The notes under the pieces: model-generated
What the model saw: the letters and a program-made list of their open reading frames with translations, nothing else
Told to the model about the DNA's origin: nothing
Databases searched by the model: none
Position numbers and translations under genes: made by a program
Part shown: in pieces, positions 4,353 to 64,000 of the stretch
Numbering within the stretch: the first letter of the stretch is position 1
Layout of the letters: each line of letters begins with the position of its first letter
NCBI RefSeq assembly: GCF_006345805.1
Contig: NC_043009.1
Span: forward strand, 25,792,001 to 25,856,000
From: Octopus sinensis
Lineage: Eukaryota
Reading direction: 5' to 3'
Length of the DNA: 64,000 nt

Positions 4353-7300
4353 TCACACCCCGGCAATTGTTGAGGCCCTGCAGCTTCCACTTCCTCTCTC
4401 TCCTCCATGGTCAAGCTGGCCTCTCGTACCCACCTTTCTTTCCACTTCCTTCCATCTATTCGCATACACTCCCCGCGGCAGGGTCCTCCTCTCCAGTCCC
4501 ATCTTGCTTCTCAGATGATATCTGAAGTAGGTGAGCAAGCCGGGCCCGGAGACAAATGACCCTGTCGCGGTTCCTTCCATTCTCGTTCTCCACATGCATT
4601 CCTTTACCACTGCAACCGTGCAGTGAAAACATGCCTCACCTTCCTTCGAGAGTCCAGTTGGCGGTATCATCTTAATCATAGACTCAGCCGACAGCTGTAC
4701 TCGTCCCAGATGCGATAACACGTGTTCTGCGTAACTTATCAAGTCGTTCAACTTCCGACAATGAAAAAAAGCGTGCTGAACGGTTTCATCGTCCAGCCCG
4801 CATCTTTGACACGTCGGTGGCACTGGAACTCCGTGCCGTGATAACTTTTCGCGAACAGGTAAAGCATTCCTGTAGCACTGCCAAGCCAGGGATCTTTGGA
4901 AATTATCCAAATACCCCGACCTGAACGTTTTCTTAAACAGATTGGCAAGCTGGTTTTCATCAAACCCCAGAGCCCCTCCTAGGACGTCATCGTTTTTACC
5001 TTCACCAGCCCTCTATAAAATACCGAGGTGGTATTTCCGCAGCCGGCCTTGCCCGCCTTGTGGATCAGCGTGAGTGCCTGTCGGCACTCCTTTTGCCATG
5101 GAGTCAGATTGCATCTTCTGATGTAACCGGGTTTAAAATTAACTAAGGAGGCCGGTCTCGGAAAAAATCCCTCTGCCAACGGACTCCACACCTTATCACC
5201 TTCCAGGTGGTGCCAGAGATGTCTTAGTCTCAACGCATGTCTGCGCATCATTAACCAAGGCATCCCTAACCCACCTTTAACGGTTCTTGACAGCACACGG
5301 AGCGTCTCACAAGTGGCTTTCCTCCTTTCCACAAAAAGCGGAAGAGAGGCTCGTTCCAACTTGTTAAGCCATGAGTCGGGGCAAGGGACGACGGTCAGGC
5401 GGTAGGTGATTACGGATGCAATAAACATCTGCGCCACCTCCGCCCTTCCTTTCAAGGACAGAGACCTTCCGGACCAGGTCCGTATTATGGCCTCCACCTT
5501 GCCGTCACCTCGCTCCAGTTCTTCTCCGTTTGGGAGTCCGGTCCAAACCAGACTCCAGCAACTTAACAGGGCCATCCGTCCAGTGTCCCACAACACTGGA
5601 CAATATCGGCTTGTTCCTCCAGGTGCCGAGGCGCAAGCCGACCGATTTGTCCCTGTTAACCTTTGCTCCTGCCACCGCCTCGTATCCTCTGATAGCCTCC
5701 TCTACACCAGGTAGTTGGGCCTCCTTGGACACGATGAGGGTGATGTCATCCGCATAGGCAGTGACCGACCTCCCACCTCCGATTCCATCTGAGTTACTCC
5801 CCAGCCTCTCCAACCTTCGCAGTAGTGGCTCGAGAGCCAATACGTACAAAAGTGGTGACAAGGGGCACCCCTGACGTACTGAACATTCGATCGAAAACGG
5901 TTCTGTTAGGTAACCGTTTATCTGGACGGTGGACTTGATGCCGCTGTACATAGCGGAGATCCACCCGCGGAATTCGGGACCCAGTCCGGTCGCTTCGAGG
6001 ACCGCCGCCAGGTACCCATGGTCTACCCTATCGAAGGCTTTACTTTGGTCCAAGTGGACCATTACCCCACCTTTGCCGGTTACTTTACCCACCCTATCTA
6101 AGGTGTAGCGTATAAGGTGAAGGTTGTCCTGGATCGACCTGCCTGGAATTGCACATGTCTGTGCTCTCCCTACAAGTTTCTCCACGACAACCGTCAACCT
6201 TTTTGCTAACACCTTGGCCAAAATCTTTAACTCTACATTAAGTAGAGTTATGGGCCTGTAGTTACTAATCATATCCCCTTTGCTCGGGTCTTTCTGGATT
6301 AGCGTCACCACTCCCCGGCTTACAGAACTGGGAATTCTCCCGTTCTGCTGCCAGTTCGTGTAGACGCCTGCCAGTATTCCCCCGAACAAATCCGGCATAT
6401 TTTGGTAAAACTCGTAGGGCAGACCATCCAGCCCCGGCGATTTCTCCCCGGCGCACTCGGCCAGCACTTCCCTTATTTCCGCGGGAGTGATCGCTCCCTC
6501 ACAGCACTCCGCTTCACGCCCCGCGAGCCGCGGCCCGCCGGCCAGGAAGTCCCTTAAGGCACTCCCCCGGTCCAGCGGGCCACCACCCCCGAACACGCGC
6601 GCGAAATGCTGGTGAAGAAACTTTTGCATCTCCTCCTGTCCATAGATCTTTTGTCCCTGTTCGCCAGTCAAAGATTTTATTGAGGCTCTGTTGCCTCTCT
6701 TACTCTCCACACGACGGGCCCATCCGGCTACGTTAACACTTCTCGTTTCCCGGCGCGCAGCTTAGCTCTGACTCTGCAACCTTCGTGTTTGGAGTCAAGG
6801 TGTCGGTACAATACCGTCCTTGCCGCCAGTACTCCGGATGCAGAGCCAGCTTCCATTGCCTCGTCTAGATTCTTAACTAAATCGCCCTCTAGACTAGCTC
6901 TATCTGTCCTTATTCTGATTGCTAAATCTAACGGACTCTAATCGAATGGCTCTTTTGAGGGCGTGCCACCATCTATTGTTAATGACGGTGCCGCACAATG
7001 CCCTCTGAACTAAATCCTTAATCCGGGTACGGAAGTCTTCACAATTCAAAATAGCCTTGTTCAGCTTCCAGTACCCGGGTCCCTGTCTATGACACTTGTC
7101 TAATTGCACCTCACACGTCACAAACTTGTGATCCGAGTAAGGTACAATATGAAATTGTGGACAACTAAACGTCCTATCTCTTTTTTTTATAATTATCCTA
7201 TCTAGGTACGATCTGTGTGAGCCGTCGTAGTTACTCCACGTCCACTGTGGAACGCTCGGCTCATCCAGTCGGTAACGGTCCACTAGATCAAAGCTCTCAG

Positions 7301-7789
7301 TAGACCCTTGAGGCTAGGATTCCCCTTCCTATTAGTTGAGCCAACACTGTCGATGTGCGCTTCAAGGACAGTGTTAAGTCCCCTACTAGTATTACTGTTT
7401 TCGACGTCGCCAGAAAGGGCTCCAGGCTTCGAAAGAAACCCGTCTGTCTACCCTCGTTCGGGGCGTAGACAGCTACCAACCTGAAGGACTGTTTACTTGC
7501 GTGAGTCACATCCAGGACAACCAGCCTGCCTTCTGGGTCCAGAAAGACAGTACTTACCTGCAGGTCCAAGCTCTTCCTGATGAAGACTGCCACGCCTCTT
7601 CCTCCTCCTCGGCTAGGAGAAATAATTTCTCGAAACCATTTAGAAGAGGTGAGAACGCTTGGGTCTCGCTCATCTTGGACTCGGTTACGATAGCAACATC
7701 TATACCTTGTGTCGTGAGGTCGTTCAGGAAACAAATTTGTTTCCGTTTCGACCCATTCCACGTATGTTTAGGCAGCCCAGCTTGGCCAT
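4353..7789 (-). CDS. LINE ORF2 (AP endonuclease, reverse transcriptase, C-terminal zinc-binding), frameshifted
   Basis: MAKLGCLNIRG, VAVYAPN, ILVGD, YLDRI, SDHK, GYWKLN, YRPITLLN, LDQSKAFDRV, VRQGCPLSP, YADD, CQRC..ETVQHAFFHC, spread over several ORF pieces. Confidence 0.92.
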
Positions 7790-9235
7790 GTGAGAGCGAG
7801 AGGGAGAGAAATAACTATACTCACGTTTGTGAAAGGGAGCACGGCGGTCTAATTTTGCCTGCTTCCCTTCTTCCGCTACTGCAGGGCTTTTGACCGGCGT
7901 TGCCACTGGGCTCTGGGTTGGTGTGGTTGCGGGGTTATTGTTAGTTTTCCTTCTAACACCTCTTTGGTGACATCTCTTATTAGGCGGTTCTTCAGGTGTT
8001 CCTGAAGAACCTCCTCCTTCCATTCGTTCTCGCCTACCTTGGCGAAGCGCGCAATTGCTTTTCCATCTGAGGTTTGCTATACAGCATAACCTCGACAGTT
8101 TGCAGCATTTGTAAACTTTTTCGTTTTTTTCATCAAACGCAATTATTTTTTCGTTTTCAATAAGCATTTTTTTGGATCTGTTTTACGGGGAGGGGTTTGG
8201 CAAACTGTTTTCCAATGAAAACAGTGCCATGGGGGTAGGGTTGGGGGATTTGCTTAATGTGTGTGTCTGTAGTGCTAGTTGTTTTTTTCCTTGTTTGGGG
8301 AGGGGAGTCCAGGGTATTTCTTTTTTTCTTTTGTGCGTAACTTGGGTATTCCATCGGTTCTATTGGTCTATTTTTGCTTCCGTATTTGTCTTGGTCGTTT
8401 TGTTGTTCTTCTTAGCTTCCTCTCCCTCCGCATTAGGTACACTTGGAGGGGCCGCATCTTCTGTTCTTTTTTTTCTGATGCAATTGGAACGGACGTGACC
8501 CTTTTCTCCACACTTGAAGCATCTGGGTCTTCGTCCTTCCACCGACACTCTCATGGACGTGCCATCCTCGTTAAAAATCCTGTCAGGCAGGCTCTCCAAG
8601 ATCTTGTTCTCTGCCTGTACGAGGAGCTCCAGAGTCTGACCCCTCCAACGTACCGCTTCCTTCCTTCTCATTTGCAGTATGTTCATTTCGCGTTCCACAT
8701 CATGTAAGACCGCCGCTGCTACCCACATGGTGTCGTATCCTCTGGGTATGTCTTCAACCGTTACCTTTGCGGTTCTCTTCCCCATATACGAGGGTAGCAG
8801 CATGATGTCGTCGTTTTTAAGGGTCAACGACGACACCTCCTTCGCCACCTCTGCCGTGTCAAAGTGTGCTTCGATCGTGGCACTTCGTGCACCTCTCACT
8901 ATATGGCGAATTTTATCCCACACCGGGGCCAAGCATTTCTCAACGGTTTCGTTTTTTACTTCCATGATCTTTTTTTCTTTAAAGTTGTACACTTTATAGA
9001 TTACGATCTTTTCCCTAATTTCTTGCACCTTCGCTTGCGGCGGCACAAGCCTTATTTCTCCTCCTTCTAGTTTTACCAAATTCCTATATTCGTACAGTTG
9101 TTCAATCTTGAATTCTATCTCCAACATGGCGCCGCCCACCGCGGCCGAGAATGATTGCCTGGGTACTGGGTTTTCCTCTTTTCCACCTTTTCCCATCACG
9201 GGAAAGTCTTCCTTCGACGTTAGGTCGAACTCCAT
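7790..9235 (-). CDS. LINE ORF1 (Gag-like, CCHC zinc knuckle), frameshifted
   Basis: 8360-9235 contains VEGRRPRCFKCGEKGHVRSNC and is homologous to the ORF1s at 56475, 58396 and 60398; the C-terminal part lies in other frames. Confidence 0.85.
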
Positions 9236-9779
9236 CTCTGAAGGTTACCTTTAAGGTAACAAGAATATGGTTAGAACAAAATTTTCTGCCCCGTAGGGCG
9301 AAAATTATCGTTTTACGACGGGTACTGTTCAGAACAGTTTACACAAACAATGATATTATAACTTCGAATTCTCTTAAATAGCAGCAGCAAATTTCTCACA
9401 ACGCAAAACGCAACAAACTGCTCCGCAAATGACAGCTAACTGATCAACATCAACGAAGCACATGGGTGAGTTTATATATATTACATCCGGGTAAATGGTA
9501 AACTTTTACGAATTGCATTTCGGGAGAGGAAAAGTTTTTTCGGAATAAAAATTTAGCAATTAAGGACAACTACTTAATAAGGAAAACTTAACAAGAAATT
9601 GTTAAGAAATTGCTAAATTTTTATTCCGAAAAAACTTTTCCTCTCCCGAAATGCAATTCGTAAAAGTTTACCATTTACCGGATGTAATATATATAAACTC
9701 ACCCATGTGCTTCGTGATGTTGATCAGTTAGCTGATCGGCTTAAGCGAGGCAGGGTCGTTGTTTATTTATAATACATTC

Positions 9780-11869: not shown

Positions 11870-12846
11870 ATTATTTTCTACTCTAGGCGCATGGCCCGAA
11901 ATTTTTGGGGAGGGGACCAATCAATTAAATCAACCCCAGTACACAACTGGTACTTAATTTATCGACCCCGAAAGGATGAAAGGAATTTGACGGAATTTGA
12001 ACTCAGAACATAAAGACAGACGAAATACCTATTTCTTTACTACCCACAAGGGGCTAAACACAGAGAGGACAAACAAGGACAGACAAACGGATTAAGTCGA
12101 TTATATCGACCCCAGTGCGTAACTGGTACTTATTTAATCGACCCCGAAAGGATGAAAGGCAAAGTGGACCTTGGCGGAATTTGAACTCAGAACGTAGCGG
12201 CAGACGAAATACCTATTTTTTTACTACCCACAAGGGGCTAAACACAGAGAGGACAAACAAGGACAGAAAAACGGATTGAGTCGATTATATCGATCCCAGT
12301 GCGTAACTGGTACTTAATTTATCGACCCCGAAAGGATGAATAGCAAAGTCGACCTCGGCGGAATTTGAACTCAGAACGTAGCGGCAGACGAAATACCGCT
12401 AAGCATTTCGCCCGGCGTGCTAACGTTTCTTATTTCTTTATTGCCCACAAGGGGCTAAACACAGAGGAGACAAACAAGGACAGACAAACGGATTAAGTCG
12501 ATTAGATCGACCCCAGTGCGTAACCGGTACTTAATTTATCGACCTCGAAAGGATGAAAGGCAAAGTCGACCTCGGCGGAATTTGAACTCAGAACGTAGCG
12601 GCAGACGAAATACCTATTTCTTTACTGCCCACAAGGGGCTACACACAGAGGGGACAAACAAGGACAGACAAACGGATTAAATGAATTATATCGACCCTAG
12701 TGCGTAACTGGTACTTAATTTATCGAACCCGAAAGGATGAAAGGCAAAGTCGACCTCAGCGGAATTTGAACTCAGAACGTAACGGTAGACGAAATACGGC
12801 TACTCATTTCGCCCGGCCTGCTAACGTTTCTGCCAGCTCACCGCCT
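11870..12846 (-). repeat. Tandem array of SINE family B units (~175-180 bp period)
   Basis: Five repeats of the core ...ATCGACCCCGAAAGGATGAAAGG..., four of them joined to the CCCACAAGGGGCT tail. Confidence 0.85.
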
Positions 12847-23122: not shown

Positions 23123-24191
<1,069 letters not shown>

Positions 24192-41955: not shown

Positions 41956-44179
41956 ATCAAGATAGGAAAAACAAACTTAAGAAAATTAGACCAAAGACTG
42001 TCTTAAAAGAACTTTAGTATCAATAAAGTTGCCGGAGCACAACACATACGAAAGAAATGATTGTGAAAGAACATTAAAAGATGCATTGTATCTATCTGTA
42101 TTGTAAAGCTAAATGTCAAGATATAAGGTAATAAGTATCACTTCTCTAATTGTCTTAGTAATAAGTTATAGTTATAATATTTTTAATTGAACTTTAAATT
42201 AATGAATAAGCTTAGTCAGAAACACAAGAAAATTCTTTCTACGGTAGGCACAAGGCCTGACAGGTTTTGTGAGACGGTAGGGCTAGTCAACTATATCGAC
42301 CCCGGTGTTGGTACTTATTTTATCGATCCCGAATAGACGAAAGGCAAAGTGAACTTCGGAGGAATTTTAACTGAGAACGTGAAGCCCGAAGAAATGTCGC
42401 CAAGCATTTTTGTCCGGTCCATTAGCGACTCTGCTAAGAAAAGTTACAGTATTTAGAATACACTACTCACAATATACTGTAGATAGCTTATATTTAACCG
42501 GAATACAGGGAGACCGGGTCCTTATGCGACTAGTAAAACTAAAAAAAATATTAATTGGACTAGAAAATATCTGAAATACAACAGAAAACTAATACACATA
42601 CACACACACACTTCTTTCGCTTATTTCTGTTGTTGCCATAAATGGTTATATGCAGATTAGCTCTGGTGGAGTAGAGCTATGTGTATGTTCAAAGGTGTTC
42701 CAATCAAGACCATCATATCAGTTTTGTTTCATTTTGTTTTGTTCATTTTAGGTGTACTAAATTTAAAACATTAACCATTGATTGAGTGGATCTGTTTTCA
42801 AGACAGTTGGGTGTGATTTGACTGCCGGTTCTTAAATCAATTGAACATTTAGAATCTCTTTTATTTCTTAACTTGTGTGTGTACTTGTGTATGTATGTAC
42901 GTACGACATGTGCAGAGCTGTGCATGTTTATGCGTATAAAAATGCAATTGCTAGAAAATGCAAATTTCTTTCACACGTTGTATTGATAGTTTAATCTGCC
43001 TGTGATTGATTAATCCATTAATTAAGATGCAATCCACTCTTTATTTGATTAGTATGTTGTTTTGGCGCTGCCTGCTTTTTTTCCCCATTGAAGATAATGT
43101 CTGAGTTTAAAGTAACGTCACCGCTAGTTATTATGAAACTTCAATTAAAGGAGGTACCATTCTCTACCATTCTAAGCTGTTTGGAGCGAGTTACCAATCA
43201 ACTGGAAAATGTCTATTCTTTATTTTTTGTCACGTTAATCCTTTCAAATTCTTGGTAACCATGCACTTACTTCCGGTTAGATAATTAAATAAAAGAAACT
43301 ATTTTCGTTCCTGGTCCTAAAATGTCTGTGAGAATTAAGAAAATATCGATTTCTCACGTTGTGATACAATACAAGAGCCAAGAGCCGAAAAAGAAAGAAT
43401 ATTAAGTTTCCTACCCTGCGAGCGATAGCAGCCAAATCCGCCTCAAATGACACGGCGCTGTCTTAAGAAAAATTGAGGACGAGTTGAATAATGCTCTTGA
43501 TTATATATATATATCTGAAAACTAAGCGGAATTGTCACGGCTGGAGCGTCTTTGATGGCTGGTCTAAATGATCAATGATTACTCGCAGACAAAGCGGTCG
43601 TTAGATTTACTAGAAAAACCAGCCAGTTCTCCTTCAAATCAGTCTTCTGTCATAAATAAGAGGTAGGGCATATTTCTATAACTAATAAAGAAAAAAGAAA
43701 ACCCTTAGGCGGGTTGGTCACAGCCAGAATGGATTTGATCCCCGTCGTCTCTAAACAACAAAGTAGCATAAATTTAAAAGTAAAAAGTATACTCGATGCG
43801 AAGTGACAGCAGTATATGACAGGTACTTTTATTTTATCGATCTCGCCGCCCCACGGTAGGATTCTAAGACTACTTCAGCGGGATTTGAACTGAAATAAAA
43901 TAGAGACGTAACTACATTTAGTTACGCTTTCTACAACTTCTGCTGCTCAAACAAAGCCTACAATTATAGAAGTATTATATTTCACTCTTTTTCTTGGTCC
44001 AGTCACTAGTCTGTGGTCATGGTGGGGCTCTGTCTTGAAGGTTCTTAGTCGAACAAATCAACATTGGCACCTTTTTTAAAGTCTGGTACTTATTCTAAGT
44101 TACAGAGATGTAAAGAAACCAACACTGGTCGTCAAGCAGTGTAAAGGGACACACACACATAAGCACACACACACTCACA

Positions 44180-44218
<39 letters not shown>

Positions 44219-44333
44219 AATCAAGGAACGGCCATAATAGGCCATTCACCCACTAGAAATAACAGCCAAAGCTTCAACCGCAAAATAACTTAATTCCGCA
44301 AACCAGGAGAAAATTAAAAAACATTACCCTGTA

Positions 44334-44438
44334 ATTTCTTATACGATGCACCGTTTCATCTATTGTTTAATGGTAAACTAACCTGATTAATTAAATCAAG
44401 CCAATCTTCCATAGGCCTTAGATTCGTCAGTAAGAAAT
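44334..44438 (-). ncRNA. Type I hammerhead ribozyme with extended helix II (F6 copy 1)
   Basis: atttctta CTGACGA atcta[~56 nt]tagat GAAA cggtgcatcg TA taagaaat. Confidence 0.85.
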
Positions 44439-44821
44439 AGCCAGATCGGAACAGATATTTTCACGAGGCACTTCTGTCCCTGCCTCGGCAAATCTGACCT
44501 AAAATTTTCAAATCATCGCACTCGCGCCTAATTTATCGGCGCAAACAATAAATATAAGCCGCCGATTCCATTACGGAATCAACCAGAAAATTCATAATTA
44601 ATCAATATAGGGTGGCAAAAAAATTTTGTAGAATTTTTTTGCCACCAGCGGCCTAGTGGGAAAAAAATTAAATAGTCATAGACCATTTATAAGTTCAACA
44701 TCACAATCAAGGAACGGCCATAATAGGCCATTCACCACTAGAAATAACAGCCAAAGCTTCAACCGCAAAATAACATTAATTCCGCAAACCAGGAGAAAAT
44801 TAAAAAAACATTTACCCTGTA

Positions 44822-44928
44822 ATTTCTTATACGATGCACCGTTTCATCTATTGTTTAATGGTAAACTAACCTGATTAAATTAAATCAAGCCAATCTTCCA
44901 TAGGCCCTTAGATTCGTCAGTAAGAAAT
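44822..44928 (-). ncRNA. Type I hammerhead ribozyme (F6 copy 2)
   Basis: Same motif: 8-bp helix I, GUA triplet. Confidence 0.85.
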
Positions 44929-45260
44929 AGCCAGATCGGAACAGATATTTTCACGAGGCACTTCTGTCCCTGCCTCGGCAATATCTGACCTAAAATTTTC
45001 AAATCATCGCACTCGCGCCTAATTTATCGGCAGCAAATAAATATAAGCCGCCGATTCCATTACGGAATCAACCAGAAAATTCATAATTAATCAATATAGG
45101 GTGGCAAAAAAATTTTGTAGAATTTTTTTGCCACCAGCGGCCTAGTGGGAAAAAAATTAAATAGTCATAGACCATTTATAAGTTCAACATCACAATCAAG
45201 GAACGGCCATAATAGGCAGGAACAGAAGTGCCTCGTGAAAATATCTGTTCCGATCTGGCT

Positions 45261-45367
45261 ATTTCTTACTGACGAATCTAAGGGCCTATGGAAGATTGGC
45301 TTGATTTAATTTAATCAGGTTAGTTTACCATTAAACAATAGATGAAACGGTGCATCGTATAAGAAAT
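45261..45367 (+). ncRNA. Type I hammerhead ribozyme (F6 inverted copy)
   Basis: atttctta 45261-45268, CTGACGA 45269-45275, GAAA 45344-45347, TA 45358-45359, taagaaat 45360-45367. Confidence 0.85.
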
Positions 45368-46591
45368 TACAGGGTAAATGTTTTTTTAATTTTCTCCTGG
45401 TTTGCGGAATTAATGTTATTTTGCGGTTGAAGCTTTGGCTGTTATTTCTAGTGGGTGAATGGCCTATTATGGCCGTTCCTTGATTGTGATGTTGAACTTA
45501 TAAATGGTCTATGACTATTTAATTTTTTTCCCACTAGGCCGCTGGTGGCAAAAAAATTCTACAAAATTTTTTTTGGACCCTATATTGATTAATATATATA
45601 TATATATATATATAATAGACTTTCTCATACATGACGGGTTTTCAGTTGCCGTCTACCAAATTCACTCACAAAAACTTTGGTCGGCCTGGGGCTAAGGTCG
45701 AAAATATTTGTTCAAGGTGCTGCGCAGTGGGACTGAACACGAGACCCACGTTTGCACAGCGAGCTTCTTAACCATACAGCCATGTCTGCGTCGATGACGC
45801 GGAGTTAAAAACAAATTGGAAAGCAAACGAATAAAAATCTAATAACACGACTGAGACGCACAGAGTGTTAGAAAAACGAAAAACAAAAGAATTTTACTGA
45901 ATCTTTAATAAATTAATCAACTTTCAAGACATTAAATGTTACTGCTGTCACCTGCTCATTGTTTCTCCTCTTCCCACCACCTTTGTCTTCAATATCCAGT
46001 TTGAATCTCTCGACGATCAAATAAAATATTCATATATTTCTAGAAGAAAATATAAATCTCGACAAAATGTTTTTAATAAGACGAGTCGGAAACACGACAG
46101 GTCGGCGAGGCCTAGTCTTAAATTTTCTTTTTGCTTGGAAACTATGGCAGGGCCTCCGAAATAGTGGAAGTGAAAGAGAAGGGTGTTTCCAAACAAAAGA
46201 CATGCCCCGAATGTTTGCAATAGAAAAGATTCCGCTAAAAGGTACTCCTGTAACCCTAGAACCCAACGTTCATGTAAAACCGATCAGGTATATTACCTAT
46301 ATAGGCCACGGCGAGATTTGAACTTAGAATGTAAAGAGCCAGAACAAATACTGCGAATCACTGGTTCGAAGTTGTTACAGTACCACCAACCCACCGCTTC
46401 GAAATGGTAGTTCTTTTTTTCATCGATCCCGAAAAACCAAAAAGGTAAAGTTAACCTCAACGGTATTTGAACTCAAAATGCTGGATGCTAGCATTGATAC
46501 AGCAAGGAACTCCATGCGACACTCTAGCGACTGCAAACACACTGCCTGGAATTAGTATGCAGCAAGGGAAAAGGGAACACAAGTGAACAAT

Positions 46592-54575: not shown

Positions 54576-54618
54576 AAGAGACTTTTAGTTTCCGTCTACC
54601 AAATTCACTCACAAGGGT

Positions 54619-55472
54619 CTAAAACAAACATCCCTTTCAACCTTGCAAGAAGGATATGCACAATAGTGTCAGAACAAAATACCAGGAACGTTAGATTACA
54701 AGAACTCAAAAACACCCTAATTGACAGACACTACCCAGCTCAACTCATAGAGGATGGGATCAGACGTGCAACAGAAATCAACATAGAAACTTTGAGAAAA
54801 GTTCAACACAACAACACACCTTCCCCGAAAATACTGCCTTACATATCCACATACAACCCCAGAAACAAAGAAGCCTTCACCATCATCACCCAGAATTTAC
54901 CAATACTTCACAAGGACCCCAAATTAAAGGAAATTCTAAACATACATAAAATCATTAAAAGCTACAAACAACCTAAATCACTTAAAAAGATTCTCACAAA
55001 GGCAAAATTGCTTTCTGAAATTACGGATGCAAAAGTAAAAAAATGTGGTAGACCAAACTGCGTAACATGTCCAAACCTTCTAGAAGGATCAGAATTCTTC
55101 TTCAAAGAGGGACAAAAATTCAAGATCAAATCTAATTTTACTTGTGCTTCTGAAAATATAATTTATGTCATAAGATGCTCGGGCTGCCACCAAAACTACG
55201 TGTGGTCCACGGGACTATCACTCAGATGGAGATGCACACTGCATCGACAACAGATTGCATTCCCAGAATACAGAATGATACTCTTTAGTGAGCATATTGA
55301 GAAATGCGCAAAGCAACTACTACCACAATTTATAATCTTTCCATTTTATCAATGTGCTATTGGAACACCAACACAAATTAGACTAAACAGGAAACATTCT
55401 TCATTGAAAAATATAAGCCCAAACTTAACCACTCTAACATTCTTATACAGAGAAACTCATCCCATTAAATAA
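54619..55472 (+). CDS. 5'-truncated Penelope-like element: RT thumb, Cys-rich linker and GIY-YIG endonuclease
   Basis: NIPFNLARRICTIVS..RHYP; KCGRPNCVTC; TCASENIIYVIRCSGCHQNYV..T..LR.R..LH. The first ~26 aa of the listed ORF come from microsatellite/SINE sequence. Confidence 0.85.
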
Positions 55473-55797
55473 AAGAGGCAAGAAATATAAAGCGATTATC
55501 TCCCTTACACTGGAAGAAATCACTTATTACCTCCCCTTACCTGGAACTCTTCTTTACACGTCATAACGAAGTCATAACACGATGTTTTGAGAAATTTGAA
55601 AAGTTAACACGAAATCGGTAATTTCTTCAAAAACTGTCACTGTATGAAAAAAATTTATAACATTCTTCTGACATAATGACTCAAATATATTTTTTAACCT
55701 TTTAAAACAAGCCTTCTGTAGTTTTTTCACTTTTTACTATTTTCTATATATTCAACCAGGTGCTTTCACACACCAACTTTCTCACCTATATATATAT

Positions 55798-56323: not shown

Positions 56324-58243
56324 ACGCGGCTCCAAGCTATATACGTGTGTTGTGAGTTATTTATATGTGAAAATTGAAAAAAGACGGTTAAAAGTTGTCA
56401 AAAATTGAATCGCGCGAGGCGTTTTGCCGCTGCGTGTTTGAACCTTTTATAGAAGGTGTGTCGACCCTCAAGTCATGGAGACTTACGCAGGGGTCGCCAC
56501 AACAAAAAGTGACGAGTCTCTTAGAATAAGAGAAGTGTTCTTTAGAAAAGAACAATTGAAGGAATACGAGAAGTTCGTCAAAAGGGAGGGTGACAGCGTG
56601 AAGCTGGTCCCGCCTGTGGAAACAATAGAAGAGAAAAATAACATGACGATAACGTATAGAACGCAAGATAGAAACACGAGAAAACTGGTGAGAGTGACGA
56701 TTGAAGAAATAGAGAAATGTCTGGGGGACATCATGAAAAAAGCGACTTTTGTAGACAGAGGAAAGAAATATGGTACGGTGGAGGTGAGATGCGCAACAAA
56801 GGAAGTGGCGGCCTCATTGGCTTCCACTGTCCTGAAAGCGGAAAATTTCACCATGTGGCCGACGTATAAAGGAAGACGAGGGGTACGGGTAAGAGTCCCA
56901 AAGGTACCCCCAAATATAAAACAGAAATGCTGGTAACAGCCATTATTGGAGCAGCAAAAGAGGAAGTAGAAATAGGGTCAATTAAGGAGACGAACGTTGT
57001 AAATTGGAAGGGATTCGGAGTCGAGTTGTGGCTAATGGCCACAATGGAAGACATCGAAAGATTTCCCTTCCAAATAGAAATAGAAAACGAGAAGACAATT
57101 AGTGTAATAGTGGAAGGCAGAAAACCGAACTGCTACCTGTGCGGATCAAGAGGGCACATAAAAAAGGAATGTCCGCTGAATGAATTCACAGCGGAGCAAA
57201 AAGAGACACAAAGTGGAGAGAAGGAAAACGAACACGAAGGAAAGAACAGCGAAAACAAGGAAAAGGAAATAACGGAGAAACAACAAGAGAAGGGAAGTAA
57301 CAGCGCACTGAAGGAAAATGAAAACAAAGGGAAGAAGATAGTAGAAGAGGAGCAAAATTCACAGGGTGCAGAAGTAGTGGAGAAGGAGCCAAGGCAGAAG
57401 CAAGAGAAAGAAAAGGAAAGTACATTAAAGGAAAGAGAAAAAGCAGGAAAAGAACAAGAGAAGGAACAGAAACAAGAGAAAGGAAAAGATGGTATGCAAA
57501 AAGGAAAAGAAACAACAGGAAAGGAACTTAAGGCACAGGGTAGAGAGACGGCAGACAAAGAGCCAAAAAGACAAGAGAAGGAAAAAGAAAGAAGAGAAAG
57601 CAGAAAGAGAGAAACCGAGGGACGAGAAAAAAGAGGAAGTAAGTCCCAAGAGAAAAACTAGAGAAAACGTAGGTACGAATAGAAAATACAAATACTATGG
57701 AACGTTGATCCATCACAAGCACTGTGAGGAGATGGAAGATTTAATAAGCGCAACAAACGGATATACGTGGGTCAGGATGGGCACCGAATGGGAAGAAACA
57801 GGTGCACTCATCCACGAGAACGACGCCGAGGCGTTCATCGAGGCAGCTGGCGAGAACGTGTTAAAACATATGAAATGCCGACTTAAAAGGTGGCCTCGAA
57901 CGATGGAACCTTACTCAGATTTGGTAGACATAATGGAGTGTATAGAATAGAAAAGGTATTGTGAAAACTTAATTTGGAAATGATAAAAAGAACTTTAAAT
58001 TCTGAAAAAAAAAAAAAAAGGAAATGTTGAACTTTGTAAAACTTTTTGAAATGTATGTTGAAAATGTAAAAAATGTTTTATTTGATAATATTGTTGACGA
58101 ACAAAATTAATTGACGAAATGTAACCGCTCGATTTCGGGGATCGAGCGGGCATTACACCACATTGTACAAACTTCATAATTCATTATTCATTCCCGATTG
58201 TATTGTCCCATCTATGTAGCCCCTAGTGGGTAATAATAAAACA
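56324..58243 (+). mobile_element. ORF1-only Tx1-related non-autonomous element, copy 1 (1920 bp)
   Basis: 5'UTR, Gag-like ORF, ~290-bp 3'UTR ending GTAGCCCCTAGTGGGTAATAATAAAACA; no endonuclease or RT. Confidence 0.85.
56475..57950 (+). CDS. Gag-like ORF1 (CCHC knuckle, K/E-rich linker, C-terminal domain), frameshifted
   Basis: VDRGKKYGTVEVRC, EGRKPNCYLCGSRGHIKKECP; the first frameshift is absent in copy 2. Confidence 0.8.
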
Positions 58244-60170
58244 ACGCGGCTCCAAGCTATATACGTGTGTTGTGAGTTATTTTATATGTGAAAATTGAAA
58301 AAAGACGGTTAAAAGTTGTCAAAAATTGAATCGCGCGAGGCGTTTTGCCGCTGCGTGTTTGAACCTTTTATAGAAGGTGTGTCGACCCTCAAGTCATGGA
58401 GACTTACGCGGGGGTCGCCACAACAAAAAGTGACGAGTCTCTTAGAATAAGAGAAGTGTTCTTTAGAAAAGAACAATTGAAGGAATACGAGAAGTTCGTC
58501 AAAAGGGAGGGTGACAGCGTGAAGCTGGTCCCGCCTGTGGAAACAATAGAAGAGAAAAATAACATCACGATAACGTATAGAACGCAAGATAGAAACACGA
58601 GAAAACTGGTGAGAGTGACGATTGAAGAAATAGAGAAATGTCTGGGGGCATCATGAAAAAAGCGACTTTTGTAGACAGAGGAAAGAAATATGGTACGGTG
58701 GAGGTGAGATGCGCAACAAAGGAAGTGGCGGCCTCATTGGCTTCCACTGTCCTGAAAGCGGAAAATTTCACCATGTGGCCGACGTATAAAGGAAGACGAG
58801 GGGTACGGGTAAGAGTCCCAAAGGTACCCCCAAATATTAAAACAGAAATGCTGGTAACAGCCATTATTGGAGCAGCAAAAGAGGAAGTAGAAATAGGGTC
58901 AATTAAGGAGACGAACGTTGTAAATTGGAAGGGATTCGGAGTCGAGTTGTGGCTGATGGCCACAATTGAAGACATCGAAAGATTTCCCTTCCAAATAGAA
59001 ATAGAAAACGAGAAAAACAATTAGTGTAATAGTGGAAGGCAGAAAACCGAATTGCTACCTGTGCGGTTCAAGAGGGCCATAAAAAAGGAATGTCCGCTGT
59101 ATGAATTCACAGCGGAGCAAAAAGAGACACAAAGTGGAGAGAAGGAAAACGAACACGAAGGAAAGAACAGCGAAAACAAGGAAAAGGAAATAACGGAGAA
59201 ACAACAAGAGAAGGGAAGTAACAGCGCACTGAAGGAAAATGAAAACAAAGGGAAGAAGATAGTAGAAAAGGAGCAAAATTCACAGGGTGCAGAAGTAGAG
59301 GAGAAGGAGCCAAGGCAGAAGCAAAGAAAGAAAAGAAAGTACATTAAAGGAAAGAGAAAAAGCAGGAAAAGAACAAGAGAAGGAACAGAACCAAGAGAAA
59401 GGAAAAGATGGTATGCAAAAAGGAAAAGAAACAACAGGAAAGGAACTTAAGGCACAGGGTAGAGAGACGGCAGACAAAGAGTCAAAAGACAAGAGAAGGA
59501 AAAGAAAGAAGAGAAAGCAAAAAGAGAGAAAGAGAGAAACCGAGGAGGAGAAAAAAGAGGAAGTAAGTCCTAAGAGAAAAACTAGAGAAAACGCAGGTAC
59601 GAATAGAAAATTCAAATACTATGGAACGTTGATCCATCACAAGCACTGTGAGGAGATGGAAGATTTAATAAGCGAAACAAACGGATATACGTGGGTCAGG
59701 ATGGGCACCGAATGGAAAGAAACAGGTGCACTCGTCCACGAGAACGACGCCGAGGCGTTCATCGAGGCAGCTGGCGAGAACGTGTTAAAACATATGAAAT
59801 GCCGACTTCCAAGGTGGCCTCGAACGATGGAAGTTTACTCAGATTTGGTAGACATAATGGAGTATATATAAAAGAAAAGGTATTGTGAAAACTTTAATTT
59901 GGAAATGATAAAAGAACTTTAAATTCGGAAAAAAAAAAAAAAAAAGAAATGTTGAACTTTGTAAAACTTTTTGAAATGTATGTTGAAAATGTATAAAATG
60001 TTTTATTTGAAAATATTGTTGACGAATAAAAATAAATGACGAAATGTAACCGCTCGATTTCGGGGATCGAGTGGGCATTGCACCACATTGTACAAACTTC
60101 ATAATTCATTATTCATTTTCCCGATTGTATTGTCCCATCTATGTAGCCCCTAGTGGGTAATAATAAAACA
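58244..60170 (+). mobile_element. ORF1-only element, copy 2 (head-to-tail with copy 1)
   Basis: Highly similar to 56324-58243, with substitutions and indels. Confidence 0.85.
58396..59871 (+). CDS. Gag-like ORF1, copy 2, frameshifted
   Basis: Same protein in pieces 58396-58656, 58638-59024, 59052-59450 and 59413-59871. Confidence 0.75.
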
Positions 60171-60397
60171 ACGCGTCGGAAATCAATTTTTTGCGTTATT
60201 AGTAAGTTGATATATTTTTGCTCTCGTACTGTTGTCTCTGTTATTATATACTGTTGGTCTACCTGTTTTGTCTATTGTTGTCTAACTTACGAAGTCAGCC
60301 TTCGCGCGAGGACTTCGCGTTGGTGTTCCCCCCTCAGTGGGGGAAAACTACAATTAATTTGGATTTACCAAAGGCTTGTTAAAGCCATTTCTTCAAG

Positions 60398-61786
60398 ATG
60401 GAGTCCCCCATATCTTATTCGCCCGTGACGAGCGAGGATGAATACCCGGCGTTGTCACCAAGAAAAAAAGAGGCGTTGTCGCCAAGAAAAAAAGAGACGT
60501 TGTCGCCGAAGAAAAAAAGAGACGTTGTCGCCGAAGAAAAAAGAGGCGGCGTCGCCCAAGAAAATGGAAAAACCAGTACCAGCATCAACTCCAGCAAAAA
60601 AATTCGCTGAAGTGGCTGGGAAAAAGATCAAAAAAATAAATATAGAAAATTTAAAAAAATTTGCAGACTGTGTAAAAAAAGAGGGCACAGAAGTGACTGT
60701 GGCCACAAACATACAAATACATGACGATATAGAAAAAAAAAGAATAATATATAAAACTTACGACACAACGAAAAAAATGATCCAAAAAATCGAAGAGAAA
60801 AAAATAGAGTTATGTTTGAAACCAATAATGGACAAAATAACATATATAAACAGAGGTAAAAAATACGGCACAGTGGAGGTGCGTTTTACCTCTGAAGAGA
60901 TAGCAAAAAAACTATCAATGGAGACTTTCAAAGCAGAAAACATCGTTCTATTACCATTATACAGAGGAAAGCGGACATCAAAAATTACAATAAACAACAT
61001 TCCCCCAGAGGCAGATGCAGAATGTCTGGTGGCAGCAGTGATGGTAGGCCTGGAGGAAAAAATAAACATCCTCCAGGCCACAGTGGAAGAAGAGGAGTTC
61101 TGGAAAGGACAAAAGATAGTGATAGCCATTCACTGGAAGAAATTCCAGAAACAGTAAAAATTAGCGAAGAGGAAAAAATAACTGTTTTCGTGGAGGGCAG
61201 GAAGCCGAGGTGCTTCGGCTGCGGCAAGAAGGGTCATGTAAGGGCGGAATGCCAACCCCAACCCAAACCGCAGGAAGCACCGAAGCCAAGAGAAAAAGAA
61301 GAAAATGTGTCACCAGAAGCAGCGTCGGACGGACCAGAAGGGAAGACCGAAGCTGTGGAGGTGACGGTGACAGCAGAACCAGCGGCGGAGGAGAATAAGA
61401 GCGAGGAAAAGATAAATGAAGAGGGGTGGAAAAAAATTACCGGAAAAAAAAAAAGAAAAACGGATACCAACCCTCCAAGAATAATTTTAAAAAAGAAAAG
61501 AGAGACAATGGACTCATATATAGCCGTAAAGGCAGCAAATAGCAGACTAGGAAACGTGTTGGCTGCTATGGCCAAAGTGGAGAAAGTGGAAAAGAAAAAT
61601 GACTTTGTAATCTACAGAATAGGCCGGAAGGATTACGGGCGGATAAAATCCGAGTTCTTCCACGACGTCGGCCCACTTAGATTGGATGTGACATCTCCAC
61701 ATATATTCGAGGGCCTACGTCAGACTCCCCCACGAGGCCCAGAAAAAGAGTTAGAAGAACAAGAGAAAACCGAACCACTGATATAA
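60398..61786 (+). CDS. LINE ORF1 (SPKK-type repeats, CCHC knuckle), frameshifted
   Basis: MESPISYSP..LSPRKK repeats; INRGKKYGTVEVRF; EGRKPRCFGCGKKGHVRAEC. Confidence 0.85.
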
Positions 61787-61794
61787 AGGTAAGT

Positions 61795-64000
61795 ATGGAT
61801 TACATTTATGTTGGTTGTTTGAATGTGCGCGGCCTGGGAACAGGCTGGAAGCAAGGTCGCTTCCTGCATGATATCAGGTCGCGTAATTTAGATGTTATTG
61901 TTGCTACAGAAACCCGGTTAGAGGGGCCAAGAGGTCTGCTCCCGCTGTTTGACGGCTACGAGAGTTTTTTCTCTCCTGGCAGTCCTACAGGCGAGAGTGG
62001 GGTGTTGGTCCTATTAAAAAGAAACCGGGTTTCTGAGAAAAAGTTAATTTTTGCAGATCCAGAAGGTAGGCTGGTCGTCATGGATTTGACGTTCAGTAAT
62101 GGTAAAGTTATCAGACTGGTTGCAATTTACGCACCCAACCATACAGGGCAAAGTGATTATTTTCGTGAACTAGAAAACTTTCTTGGTACTTCGCATTCAT
62201 TAGTGGTGCTAGGAGACTTTAACACAATTTGCAAAGCGGATGTAGATTGTGTTGGCTCGCGTCCAGATAGAAAAGGCAACAGTGGCTTCATGGAACTGCT
62301 AAGCCGCTTTGAGCTAGCAGATCCTTATAGGCTGGAATTTCCGAACGCTCCATTGTGGACATGGTCAAACAGCGACGGATCTTCCAGGTCATATTTAGAT
62401 AGAATACTAATTAGAAAAGTAGACAGTAAAATAGCTAAGTGTCCACAGTTTTACCCGATCAGCTACAGTGATCATAAAATGGTCACTTGTAAGCTTGACA
62501 TAGATAAGGTTAAAAATAGAGGATCCGGTTACTGGAAACTTAATACGTCCCTTTTGGCGATTAAGGAGTACAAAGACCGGATTAGGGATATAATTCAGAG
62601 GGCACTATCTGGTACCATCATTAATAACAAATGGTGGTACGCCCTCAAACGAGCCATCAAGTTCGAGTCAATTAGATATAGCATAGGAGTAGTGGCTAGA
62701 GAGGCTAGAAGGGAAACTACTCTAGTTAAGGAATTAGAGGAAGCCTTGAAAACTGGCTCAGGTGACGGCCAAGAGACTGGTGTTAAACCAGCACCTCGAG
62801 GCCAAACACATGGGCTGCATTGTCAGGGCTAGAATCCGCCATATGGGTTGTGAAGGAATCAACGCCGTAAGATGGGCCCGAGTGGTGGAAGCACAGCAAG
62901 GTAACGATGCCACGATTCGATCTTTGACGAACCAACAAGGTGAGTTGATAAACGAGCCCGAGGAGATGTGTGAGGCCTTTCAGGAGTACTTCGCTCAGCT
63001 TTTCGGTGAGTGCGGCGGACTGGATAGGAGGAGGGCCTTTACGGACTTACTCGACGGGCTGCCGCGCTTGTCGGGGCGAGATGCGGAGGGCTGTGAAGGG
63101 CCAATCACGCCTGAGGAGGTGGTTGAGGCAATGGCGGACTGCGGCGCGGGCAAGGCGCCGGGTTTGGATGGTCTACCCTATGAGTTATATAAGAGTATGC
63201 CAGACTTGTTCGGGCACCTACTGGCGGAGGTCTATGCGAACTGGTGGCAGAACGGGCTTATACCCAGATCTGTGCGCCGGGGAGTAGTGACACTCGTCAG
63301 AAAGGACCCGAGCAAGGGGGAGTGCATTGATAATTTCAGGCCCATCACTCTGCTAAACAGAGTTGAAGATTTTGGCCAAAGTGTTATCGAAAAGATTGGC
63401 GCGTGTCGCGGATGGTCTGATCGGGGAGGCACAAACATGTGCCGTTCCGGGCAGAACCATTCAGGATAATCTCCATCTAATGCGGTACACTATAGAGGGG
63501 TTTAATAGTGATTCTGGCAAGGGTGGGGCACTGGTCCATTTAGACCAATCTAAAGCATTTGATAGGGTCGACCATAGTTACCTGGTATCTGCCCTGGCAC
63601 AGTTCGGGCTGAGCCTTGGCTTCCTCAGGTGGATTATCCAAATTTATGATAACATCGACTCGGTAGTTCGGGTGAACGGATTCTTGTCGAAGCCGTTCAA
63701 AATCAAACGCTCGGTTCGTCAAGGGTGTCCGCTCTCCCCGCTTTTGTACGTGATGGCTTTAGAGCCATTACTGCGAAAACTGAGCGGCATCCCCAGACAG
63801 CCAGGTAATGGAAAATCAGTGTCAGCGTACGCGGATGACATCACCATCATCGTAACCGAAATGGACCACCTATGTAAAGTAGGCAAGGCCATAGAGGTTT
63901 ACGAGACGGTGACAGGAGCAAAAGTTAATCGCGAAAAGTCAGTCGGCTTGCAACTCGGCACCTGGAGAGGCAAGTCGATGCCTCCTGAGCATCGTGGGAC
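61795..64000 (+). CDS. LINE ORF2 (AP endonuclease and reverse transcriptase), partial, frameshifted
   Basis: GCLNVRGL, TET, VLGDFN, YLDRI, SDHK, GYWKLN, FRPITLLN, LDQSKAFDRV, VRQGCPLSP, YADD. Confidence 0.92.

Follow-up and report, generated by a model that had tools for sequence, protein, structure and literature searches.

What kind of element places two direct units and an inverted copy of the same non-coding sequence side by side, each with a hammerhead ribozyme, and from what template were these copies made? The initial annotation of the window (the whole 64,000-nt stretch analysed here) called the array retrozyme-like, predicted a 488-nt self-excising RNA that could circularise, and saw in the tandem copies the trace of rolling reverse transcription. 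We followed these proposals from the locus to the genome.

Layout of the array

The array has the layout first described: two direct units of 486 nt (44214-44699) and 489 nt (44700-45188), a 29-nt partial third unit, and an inverted arm at 45214-45593, the two arms overlapping by AGGC. Monomer positions are numbered q1 to q488, starting at the base after a predicted ribozyme cut (44829) and running along the minus strand. The features are as follows.

44183 to 44213, no strand: (TA)n tract at the left outer end, the putative insertion target
44214 to 45217, minus strand: Arm A, 2.06 units, from q102 to fixed end A (q130, at 44214), crossing two predicted cut sites
44334 to 44438, minus strand: type I hammerhead copy 1, predicted cut 44342/44341
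44342 to 44829, minus strand: monomer from cut to cut, 488 nt in this assembly and about 490 nt across the family, numbered q1-q488
44822 to 44928, minus strand: type I hammerhead copy 2, predicted cut 44830/44829
45214 to 45217, no strand: AGGC microhomology joining the 5' ends of Arm A (q102) and Arm B (q345)
45214 to 45593, plus strand: Arm B, from q345 to fixed end B (q233, at 45593), crossing one predicted cut site
45261 to 45367, plus strand: type I hammerhead copy 3, predicted cut 45359/45360
45281 to 45338, plus strand: helix II extension of 58 nt; internal loop, 4 bp, then a 14-bp stem in the predicted fold
45491 to 45593, plus strand: 'tail' from end A to end B, present only on the outer end of Arm B
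45594 to 45614, no strand: (TA)n tract at the right outer end

No reading frame of at least 120 aa was found in 44214-45593. The folding z-score was −6.05 for the monomer and −3.83 for the ribozyme region. The predicted monomer of 488 nt agrees with the cut-to-cut distance as assembled, but the commonest distance in the family is 490 nt (28 of 189 intervals, most of which fall between 485 and 492 nt); the window monomer was probably shortened by assembly indels. The array as a whole is not an artefact of assembly, a possibility that the annotation had raised against itself, because loci on many contigs are built in the same way.

The hammerhead ribozyme

A hammerhead descriptor was run on both strands of the whole 64-kb window and matched only at the three places within the array, with CUGANGA at 44430 (minus), 44920 (minus) and 45269 (plus). 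All three annotated hammerheads are complete and have intact cores, and their helices are as first drawn: an 8-bp helix I, a 5-bp helix II and helix III CGGTGCATCG. The spacing from CUGANGA to GAAA is 66, 68 and 68 nt, corresponding to an insert of 56-58 nt. The conserved CUGANGA and GAAA segments and a UH cut site are all present, N7 and the cut-site base vary as a hammerhead allows, and the core is intact in 300 of 319 hammerhead passages across the family. Two canonical features are replaced. The base pair at the foot of helix II, canonically G-C, is A-U in 13 of 25 variants and unpaired in 12, and the 56-58 nt extension stands in place of a short loop 2.

The proposed comparison with the Rfam hammerhead model (RF00163) gave no match. 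Rfam reported no hammerhead in the whole window at the gathering score and none in 43800-46000 at E up to 10; weak miRNA and snoRNA matches were dismissed as microsatellite and as hairpins arising by chance. The hammerheads of this kind, whose helix II is long and paired, number in the thousands and went undetected by Rfam.

Covariation was examined in 25 distinct variants chosen from 68; these sequences are related, so the alignment cells are not independent events. Two-sided changes occurred at five base pairs, three in helix I and two in helix II, while helix III varied on one side only; in an older subfamily helix III is a perfect palindrome. The covariation score in these 25 related rows was 0.102, compared to 0.064 for shuffled and at most 0.045 for slid alignments, and for the two-sided pair count only 45 of 500 shuffles fell short. 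The compensatory changes in helices I and II indicate, as far as sequence comparison goes, a type I hammerhead under selection. The helix II extension is 98% paired and shows no two-sided change; it is thus conserved, yet not independently proven. In the structural model this insert is a paired rod that continues helix II. Internal loops beyond helices I and II are candidates for a loop 1-loop 2 contact.

The minimum-energy fold predicted for the ribozyme region lacks helix III (−29.7 kcal/mol, compared to −25.9 kcal/mol for the hammerhead fold). The predicted pairing probability of helix III is 0.02-0.05 within one circle molecule, whereas between two molecules the predicted energy is −17.5 kcal/mol. 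A weak intramolecular and strong intermolecular helix III, as modelled, agrees with the dimeric mode that PMC4209133 describes for hammerheads of metazoans. As the monomer ribozyme is predicted to be weak, clean monomer excision is not assured.

A dispersed repeat family

The locus is one copy of a dispersed, non-coding, hammerhead-bearing repeat family. About 4,100 hammerhead motifs were counted in the 2.7-Gb genome (2.72 Gb): two exact 16-letter helix III motifs occurred 3,398 and 703 times, and their reversed controls once and twice. Exact end motifs running into (TA)n were found at 417 and 513 sites (controls, 0), from which more than 1,000 loci are likely. The insertions sit in (TA)n, which masks target-site duplications; of 240 arm 3' ends at family loci, 231 have such a tract no more than 16 nt away. 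Contigs from four public runs (X1, X10, X16 and X17; four organism codes) span the whole unit in all 29 bins. They also contain the unit-to-unit join, which is uninformative on circles because tandem DNA has the same join.

Some whole family loci have been duplicated together with their flanks (L122-L124, L229 and L376). A 3-kb gap in L376 was considered as an ORF-bearing unit and rejected; it is a duplication with a LINE-like insertion. Other repeats within the window are three near-identical units of 312-349 nt with (TA)n between them (23128-24168; 97% alike), SINE-like units of 184 and 217 nt in tandem (11924-12831), and broken LINE-like elements with ORF1, endonuclease and RT frames (4353-9244, minus strand; 56442-63469, plus strand).

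Two fixed 3' ends

We parsed 138 loci, 40 picked by score (the window locus among them) and, in coordinate order, 57 by the motif of end A and 41 by that of end B. Before parsing we removed two segmental duplicates and nine loci that both motifs had picked up; a small extra match in L039 was ignored, and the duplicated L229 was counted once. The loci comprised 108 head-to-head, 29 single-armed and 1 complex arrangement; several single-armed loci bear a 10-25 nt stub of the B arm. In the head-to-head loci the outer 3' ends lie at A (q125-135) or B (q229-243), sites located 130 nt and about 236 nt past the predicted cut, respectively. Ninety-nine of these 108 loci, of which the one in the window is a typical example, have one A and one B end, one has two B ends, none has two A ends, and 8 have one odd end; the closest to an AA locus is L119 (q117 with q130). 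Among 80 loci chosen by one end motif alone, the second end lay at the opposite site in 75 and at the same site in none. The 'tail' between the two sites measures 103 nt at the window locus and about 106 nt in the family, with an 18-bp-type hairpin just before B. Junctions between two arms (n = 97) showed overlap in 51 cases, filler in 38 and a blunt join in 8.

The A and B ends are the 'tail' signature of Penelope-like elements (PLEs), here 106 nt long. Like endonuclease-bearing (EN+) PLEs, the family has two 3' ends with the tail at one of them only, 5' truncation, an inverted upstream copy and a (TA)n target. The inverted arm is the normal product of Penelope-like two-ended insertion and not particular to the window locus (108 of 138). 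Random circular permutation of the copies, which had been expected, was rejected: the 3' ends are fixed at two sites and only the 5' ends vary.

PLEs in the same genome

The window itself contains, at 54590-55790 (plus strand), a 5'-truncated Neptune-like PLE with a C-terminal endonuclease (linker zinc finger and GIY-YIG-like end), a fragment that Pfam did not recognise. A first look yielded 21,519 candidates for this family, with open frames of 800-920 aa and A/B ends (the tail) 44 nt apart. Among 20 loci, A/B pairing was seen in 9 of the 9 copies with both ends found. Neither a hammerhead nor similarity to the 490-nt unit was detected in the Neptune-like family.

A second hammerhead family, next to one Neptune-like copy, turned out to be the terminal part of a PLE that bears the Hydra motifs RWK, DKT and CxCx5C, the Hydra clade being taken as defined in section 11 of PMC8557442. 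A/B pairing was present in 23 of 24 head-to-head Hydra-type copies (30 loci). Several Hydra-type families have hammerheads with a 54-76 nt CUGANGA-GAAA spacer that is predicted to fold as a rod; helix III is mostly palindromic and the tails are about 124-150 nt. Hydra-type PLEs with a long helix II were observed at L106:6225-6630, L230-L265, L377 and L379, with asparagine-rich inserts between RT and endonuclease. The 3' ends of L333 and L334 belong to a Hydra-type family in which the hammerhead core of at least two copies is CCGAAGA instead of CUGANGA. Further hammerhead-like motifs of other repeats lie at L331:512, L334:6383, L263:6190 and L256, one having a short helix II and long helix III and one a 55-nt spacer.

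Partner searches, in each of which the best 135-150 of thousands of candidates were scored, returned no autonomous PLE sharing the unit sequence among 50 Neptune-like and 86 Hydra-search loci. A single 26-nt unit match in Hydra-type loci was rejected as shared sequence, being an independent B end with a (TA)n tract of its own. PLE fragments beside six family loci (four viewed) are separate insertions, with the exception of L175. This locus (4966-5720) is a chimera, one arm being retrozyme, while in the other pieces of retrozyme are joined to a Neptune-like PLE that is 5'-truncated and comes from a different family. Since the unit shares no sequence with the PLEs found, the case for a Hydra-type partner comes from anatomy; judged in this way, a Hydra-clade enzyme probably moves the family. 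L175 points to a Neptune-like enzyme as an alternative mover.

Both arms reiterate one haplotype

Away from indels, substitutions amounted to 0.53% within an arm, 0.54% between the arms of a locus and 3.7% between loci. Sharing of variants was counted at positions covered by at least three units. Common (subfamily) variants were present in all units 414 times, in one unit 25 times and in some units 12 times (37 partial cases); the corresponding counts were 25, 90 and 14 for rare variants and 10, 111 and 13 for private ones. Thus 35 rare or private variants are fixed in every unit of their locus, many across both arms. Another 27 are common to some units only, several of them in adjacent units (L170 and L228), showing local duplication after insertion or in assembly. 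The two arms of a locus differed at 14 of 2,259 diagnostic cells (0.6%), compared to 1.2% for the nearest other locus and 23% for a random one; with a margin of only 0.6% versus 1.2%, this concordance could reflect one source locus rather than one molecule.

A cut site is crossed by 177 of 240 arms, and 85 cross at least two. Arm length falls off smoothly, the longest arm seen being 11.6 units (L378). In the 89 simple AB loci the lengths of the two arms correlate (rho 0.50), and in 19 pairs the two arms end at template points no more than 15 nt apart, compared to a mean of 2.6 and a maximum of 10 in 10,000 shuffles; leaving out these 19 pairs gave a rho of 0.33. The 68 motif-picked loci on their own showed the same pattern of arm lengths and stops. 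Palindromic microhomology alone may favour symmetric junctions.

Proposed mechanism and alternatives

The retrozyme reading of the initial annotation is supported, as are a conserved hammerhead and the reiteration of one monomer; its expectation of randomly permuted copies is not. Tandems alone are no proof of rolling-circle copying because the Neptune-like PLE, in which no hammerhead was found, has a tandem copy as well (L090). We propose, with a probability of roughly 0.6, that the family is a non-autonomous PLE (a non-LTR retrozyme) for which a PLE enzyme, probably of the Hydra clade, copies one likely circular 490-nt RNA from two internal sites. As to the parts of this proposal, we are confident that the family is a PLE-mobilised retrozyme, consider coupled priming at two sites to be probable, and lean towards a circular template.

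Arrays would be transcribed and cut slowly by the hammerhead, likely as a dimer formed through the self-complementary helix III. Some monomers would then be ligated into circles, as in described retrozymes; circularised monomers have been shown for other animal retrozymes (PMC7229834). A PLE protein, probably a dimer, would cut both strands of a (TA)n tract, and a single RNA would serve both, one strand being primed at its site A and the second at its site B. In vitro work on a PLE reported that synthesis began at two internal sites and that both strands were extended, and it also predicted a dimer (PMC11167929). Copying would follow, and its footprint is visible in the genome: both arms reiterate one haplotype over as many as 11.6 units and cross the cut site without indels. 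Synthesis would stop at random or at a break in the template, often the ribozyme cut, and the two cDNA ends would be joined via microhomology or short fillers to give a head-to-head insertion.

A less likely alternative is that the same element, with the same two-site priming, uses a multimeric transcript that is linear and partly uncleaved and comes from a homogeneous source array; array length would be regained by local duplication, and circles, if any, would be a side product. The positions of arm 5' ends, which also count in favour of the ribozyme in the scheme above, argue for it. Thirty-two lie in the 30 nt after the cut and 10 in the 30 nt before it (p 0.0009), and the ten largest such steps among the 488 positions all fall at q479-q1; in the unbiased motif-picked subset the step is weaker (26 versus 10, p 0.011). 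The pile-up is seen again in the second and third rounds. For synthesis to stop at the cut site, in later rounds too, the template must have a linear end at that point; pausing at hairpins could contribute as well, and further 5'-end hotspots lie at q20-24 and q86-90. A linear template would also agree with the tandem copy and A/B ends of the PLE family without a detected hammerhead, with private variants that are sometimes common to adjacent units, and with the anole PLE in vitro, for which unprocessed RNA was the dominant substrate and its own hammerhead was not needed (PMC11167929). Unit-specific variants present in two loci occupied the same rank in 18 of 50 pairs, compared to 12 expected, a weak lean to linear copying. 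However, the 45 multi-unit loci carry 31 haplotypes, each of them fixed throughout its array and across the inversion, so that a linear template requires repeated bottlenecks of a single unit and subsequent reiteration. By itself, linear copying makes arrays shorter, yet the arms are long and their lengths fall off smoothly, and selection on the ribozyme requires a role for cleavage.

We consider it improbable that the template is a cleaved linear monomer on which the enzyme jumps from the 5' end to the 3' end, the two being held close by the ribozyme fold. Such jumping would account for both the homogeneity and the stops at the cut site. Template jumps by retroelement reverse transcriptases usually gain or lose bases, but the junction is copied as cleanly as other positions: we counted 4 indel openings over 5 junction positions in 360 passages, or 0.2% per position compared to a median of 0.3%.

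Equally improbable is an inverted arm made by self-priming or fold-back of one product, with end A arising by endonuclease resolution, as proposed for PLE inversions (PMC3846280, PMC8557442). The 19 of 89 near-symmetric junctions do resemble palindromes that have been described in PLEs of rotifers. If a B-primed strand folded back, B should be the arm that extends further, but A reaches further in 50 of the 89 AB loci and B in 20, compared to 34 expected, and 16 loci have arms of which neither contains the other; both results also count in favour of coupled copying from A and B.

A last reading, to which the single-base indels between window units (resembling assembly noise) and the lack of an Rfam match might point, is a satellite or an artefact of assembly that contains a hammerhead-like motif by chance. 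It can practically be dismissed given that the motif has about 4,100 copies, together with the fixed ends (417 and 513 exact sites), compensatory changes, and contigs of four public runs covering the whole unit.

Returning to two-site copying of a likely circular RNA, we tentatively extend the scheme to PLEs in general, although we rate this extension at somewhat less than an even chance: PLEs may integrate by double target-primed reverse transcription, a dimeric enzyme priming two strands at two fixed sites of one RNA, which would explain the tail, the inversion and, where a ribozyme makes a circle, homogeneous arrays. If true, the family loci would record in the genome how two polymerases travelled around a single circular RNA, and Rfam would be missing a class of long-helix-II hammerheads carried by the Hydra-type elements of this lineage. 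The family yields predictions that can be counted (for each event one A and one B end, a shared template for both arms, and A ahead of B) that the existing in vitro PLE assay can directly test, and its 490-nt RNA is a candidate minimal cargo for a PLE enzyme.

Comparison with known systems

How PLEs make the tail and the tandem or inverted insertions is named as an open question in PMC8557442 and PMC11167929, and the step from circle to genome is presented as proposed, not shown, in the accounts of animal retrozymes in PMC7229834 and a 2026 preprint (Li et al., bioRxiv 10.64898/2026.07.22.740005). That animal retrozymes are non-autonomous PLEs has already been published in this preprint. The literature searched, mostly outside subscription papers, Repbase and supplements (which may list the family), contained no description of the family, no counted A/B pairing and no within-locus haplotype evidence for a reiterated template.

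The family resembles the metazoan non-LTR retrozymes described by Cervera and de la Pena (2020, PMC7229834) and Li et al. in its non-coding tandem units with one type I hammerhead each, its dispersed multicopy nature, and the proposed PLE mobilisation and circular template. Its unit of about 490 nt compares with RNAs of 170-400 nt and repeats of 150-450 bp in PMC7229834 and with 51-972 bp in the 2026 preprint. Unlike the metazoan retrozymes as presented in these two sources, it has a helix II extended by 56-58 nt, and the fixed paired ends, head-to-head arms and within-locus haplotypes do not appear in the descriptions given there. Circles were shown for the metazoan retrozymes in PMC7229834, whereas the circle of the present family is a predicted one.

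With EN+ PLEs, as described in PMC8557442 and PMC3846280, the family shares the pLTR 'tail' and the inverted 5'-truncated copy. It differs from them in having no ORF and a tail of about 106 nt rather than 30-40 (PMC8557442, PMC3846280, PMC11167929); the Hydra-type families of this genome are also long-tailed. Pairing of one A with one B end was counted here (99 of 108), whereas the in vitro work of PMC11167929 saw start sites that did not differ from strand to strand.

Hydra-clade PLEs, according to PMC8557442, insert into (TA)n and have a hammerhead near the 3' end, as does the present family, but we found no sequence in common between them and the unit. The Hydra hammerheads in the supplement of that paper, including one octopus family, have a loop 2 of 3-10 nt, unlike those described here. 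A precedent for a long helix II is provided by the spike-moss PLE-X1 hammerheads (PMC8557442, supplement S2), in which helix II closes 29-35 nt and which are marked there as non-canonical; this plant element, in contrast to the present family, is autonomous, endonuclease-less and rDNA-targeted, and its insert is shorter. The Hydra-type PLEs of the same genome (RWK, DKT, YRDD and CxCx5C; L377) combine long-helix-II hammerheads, tails of about 124-150 nt and A/B pairing like that of the family.
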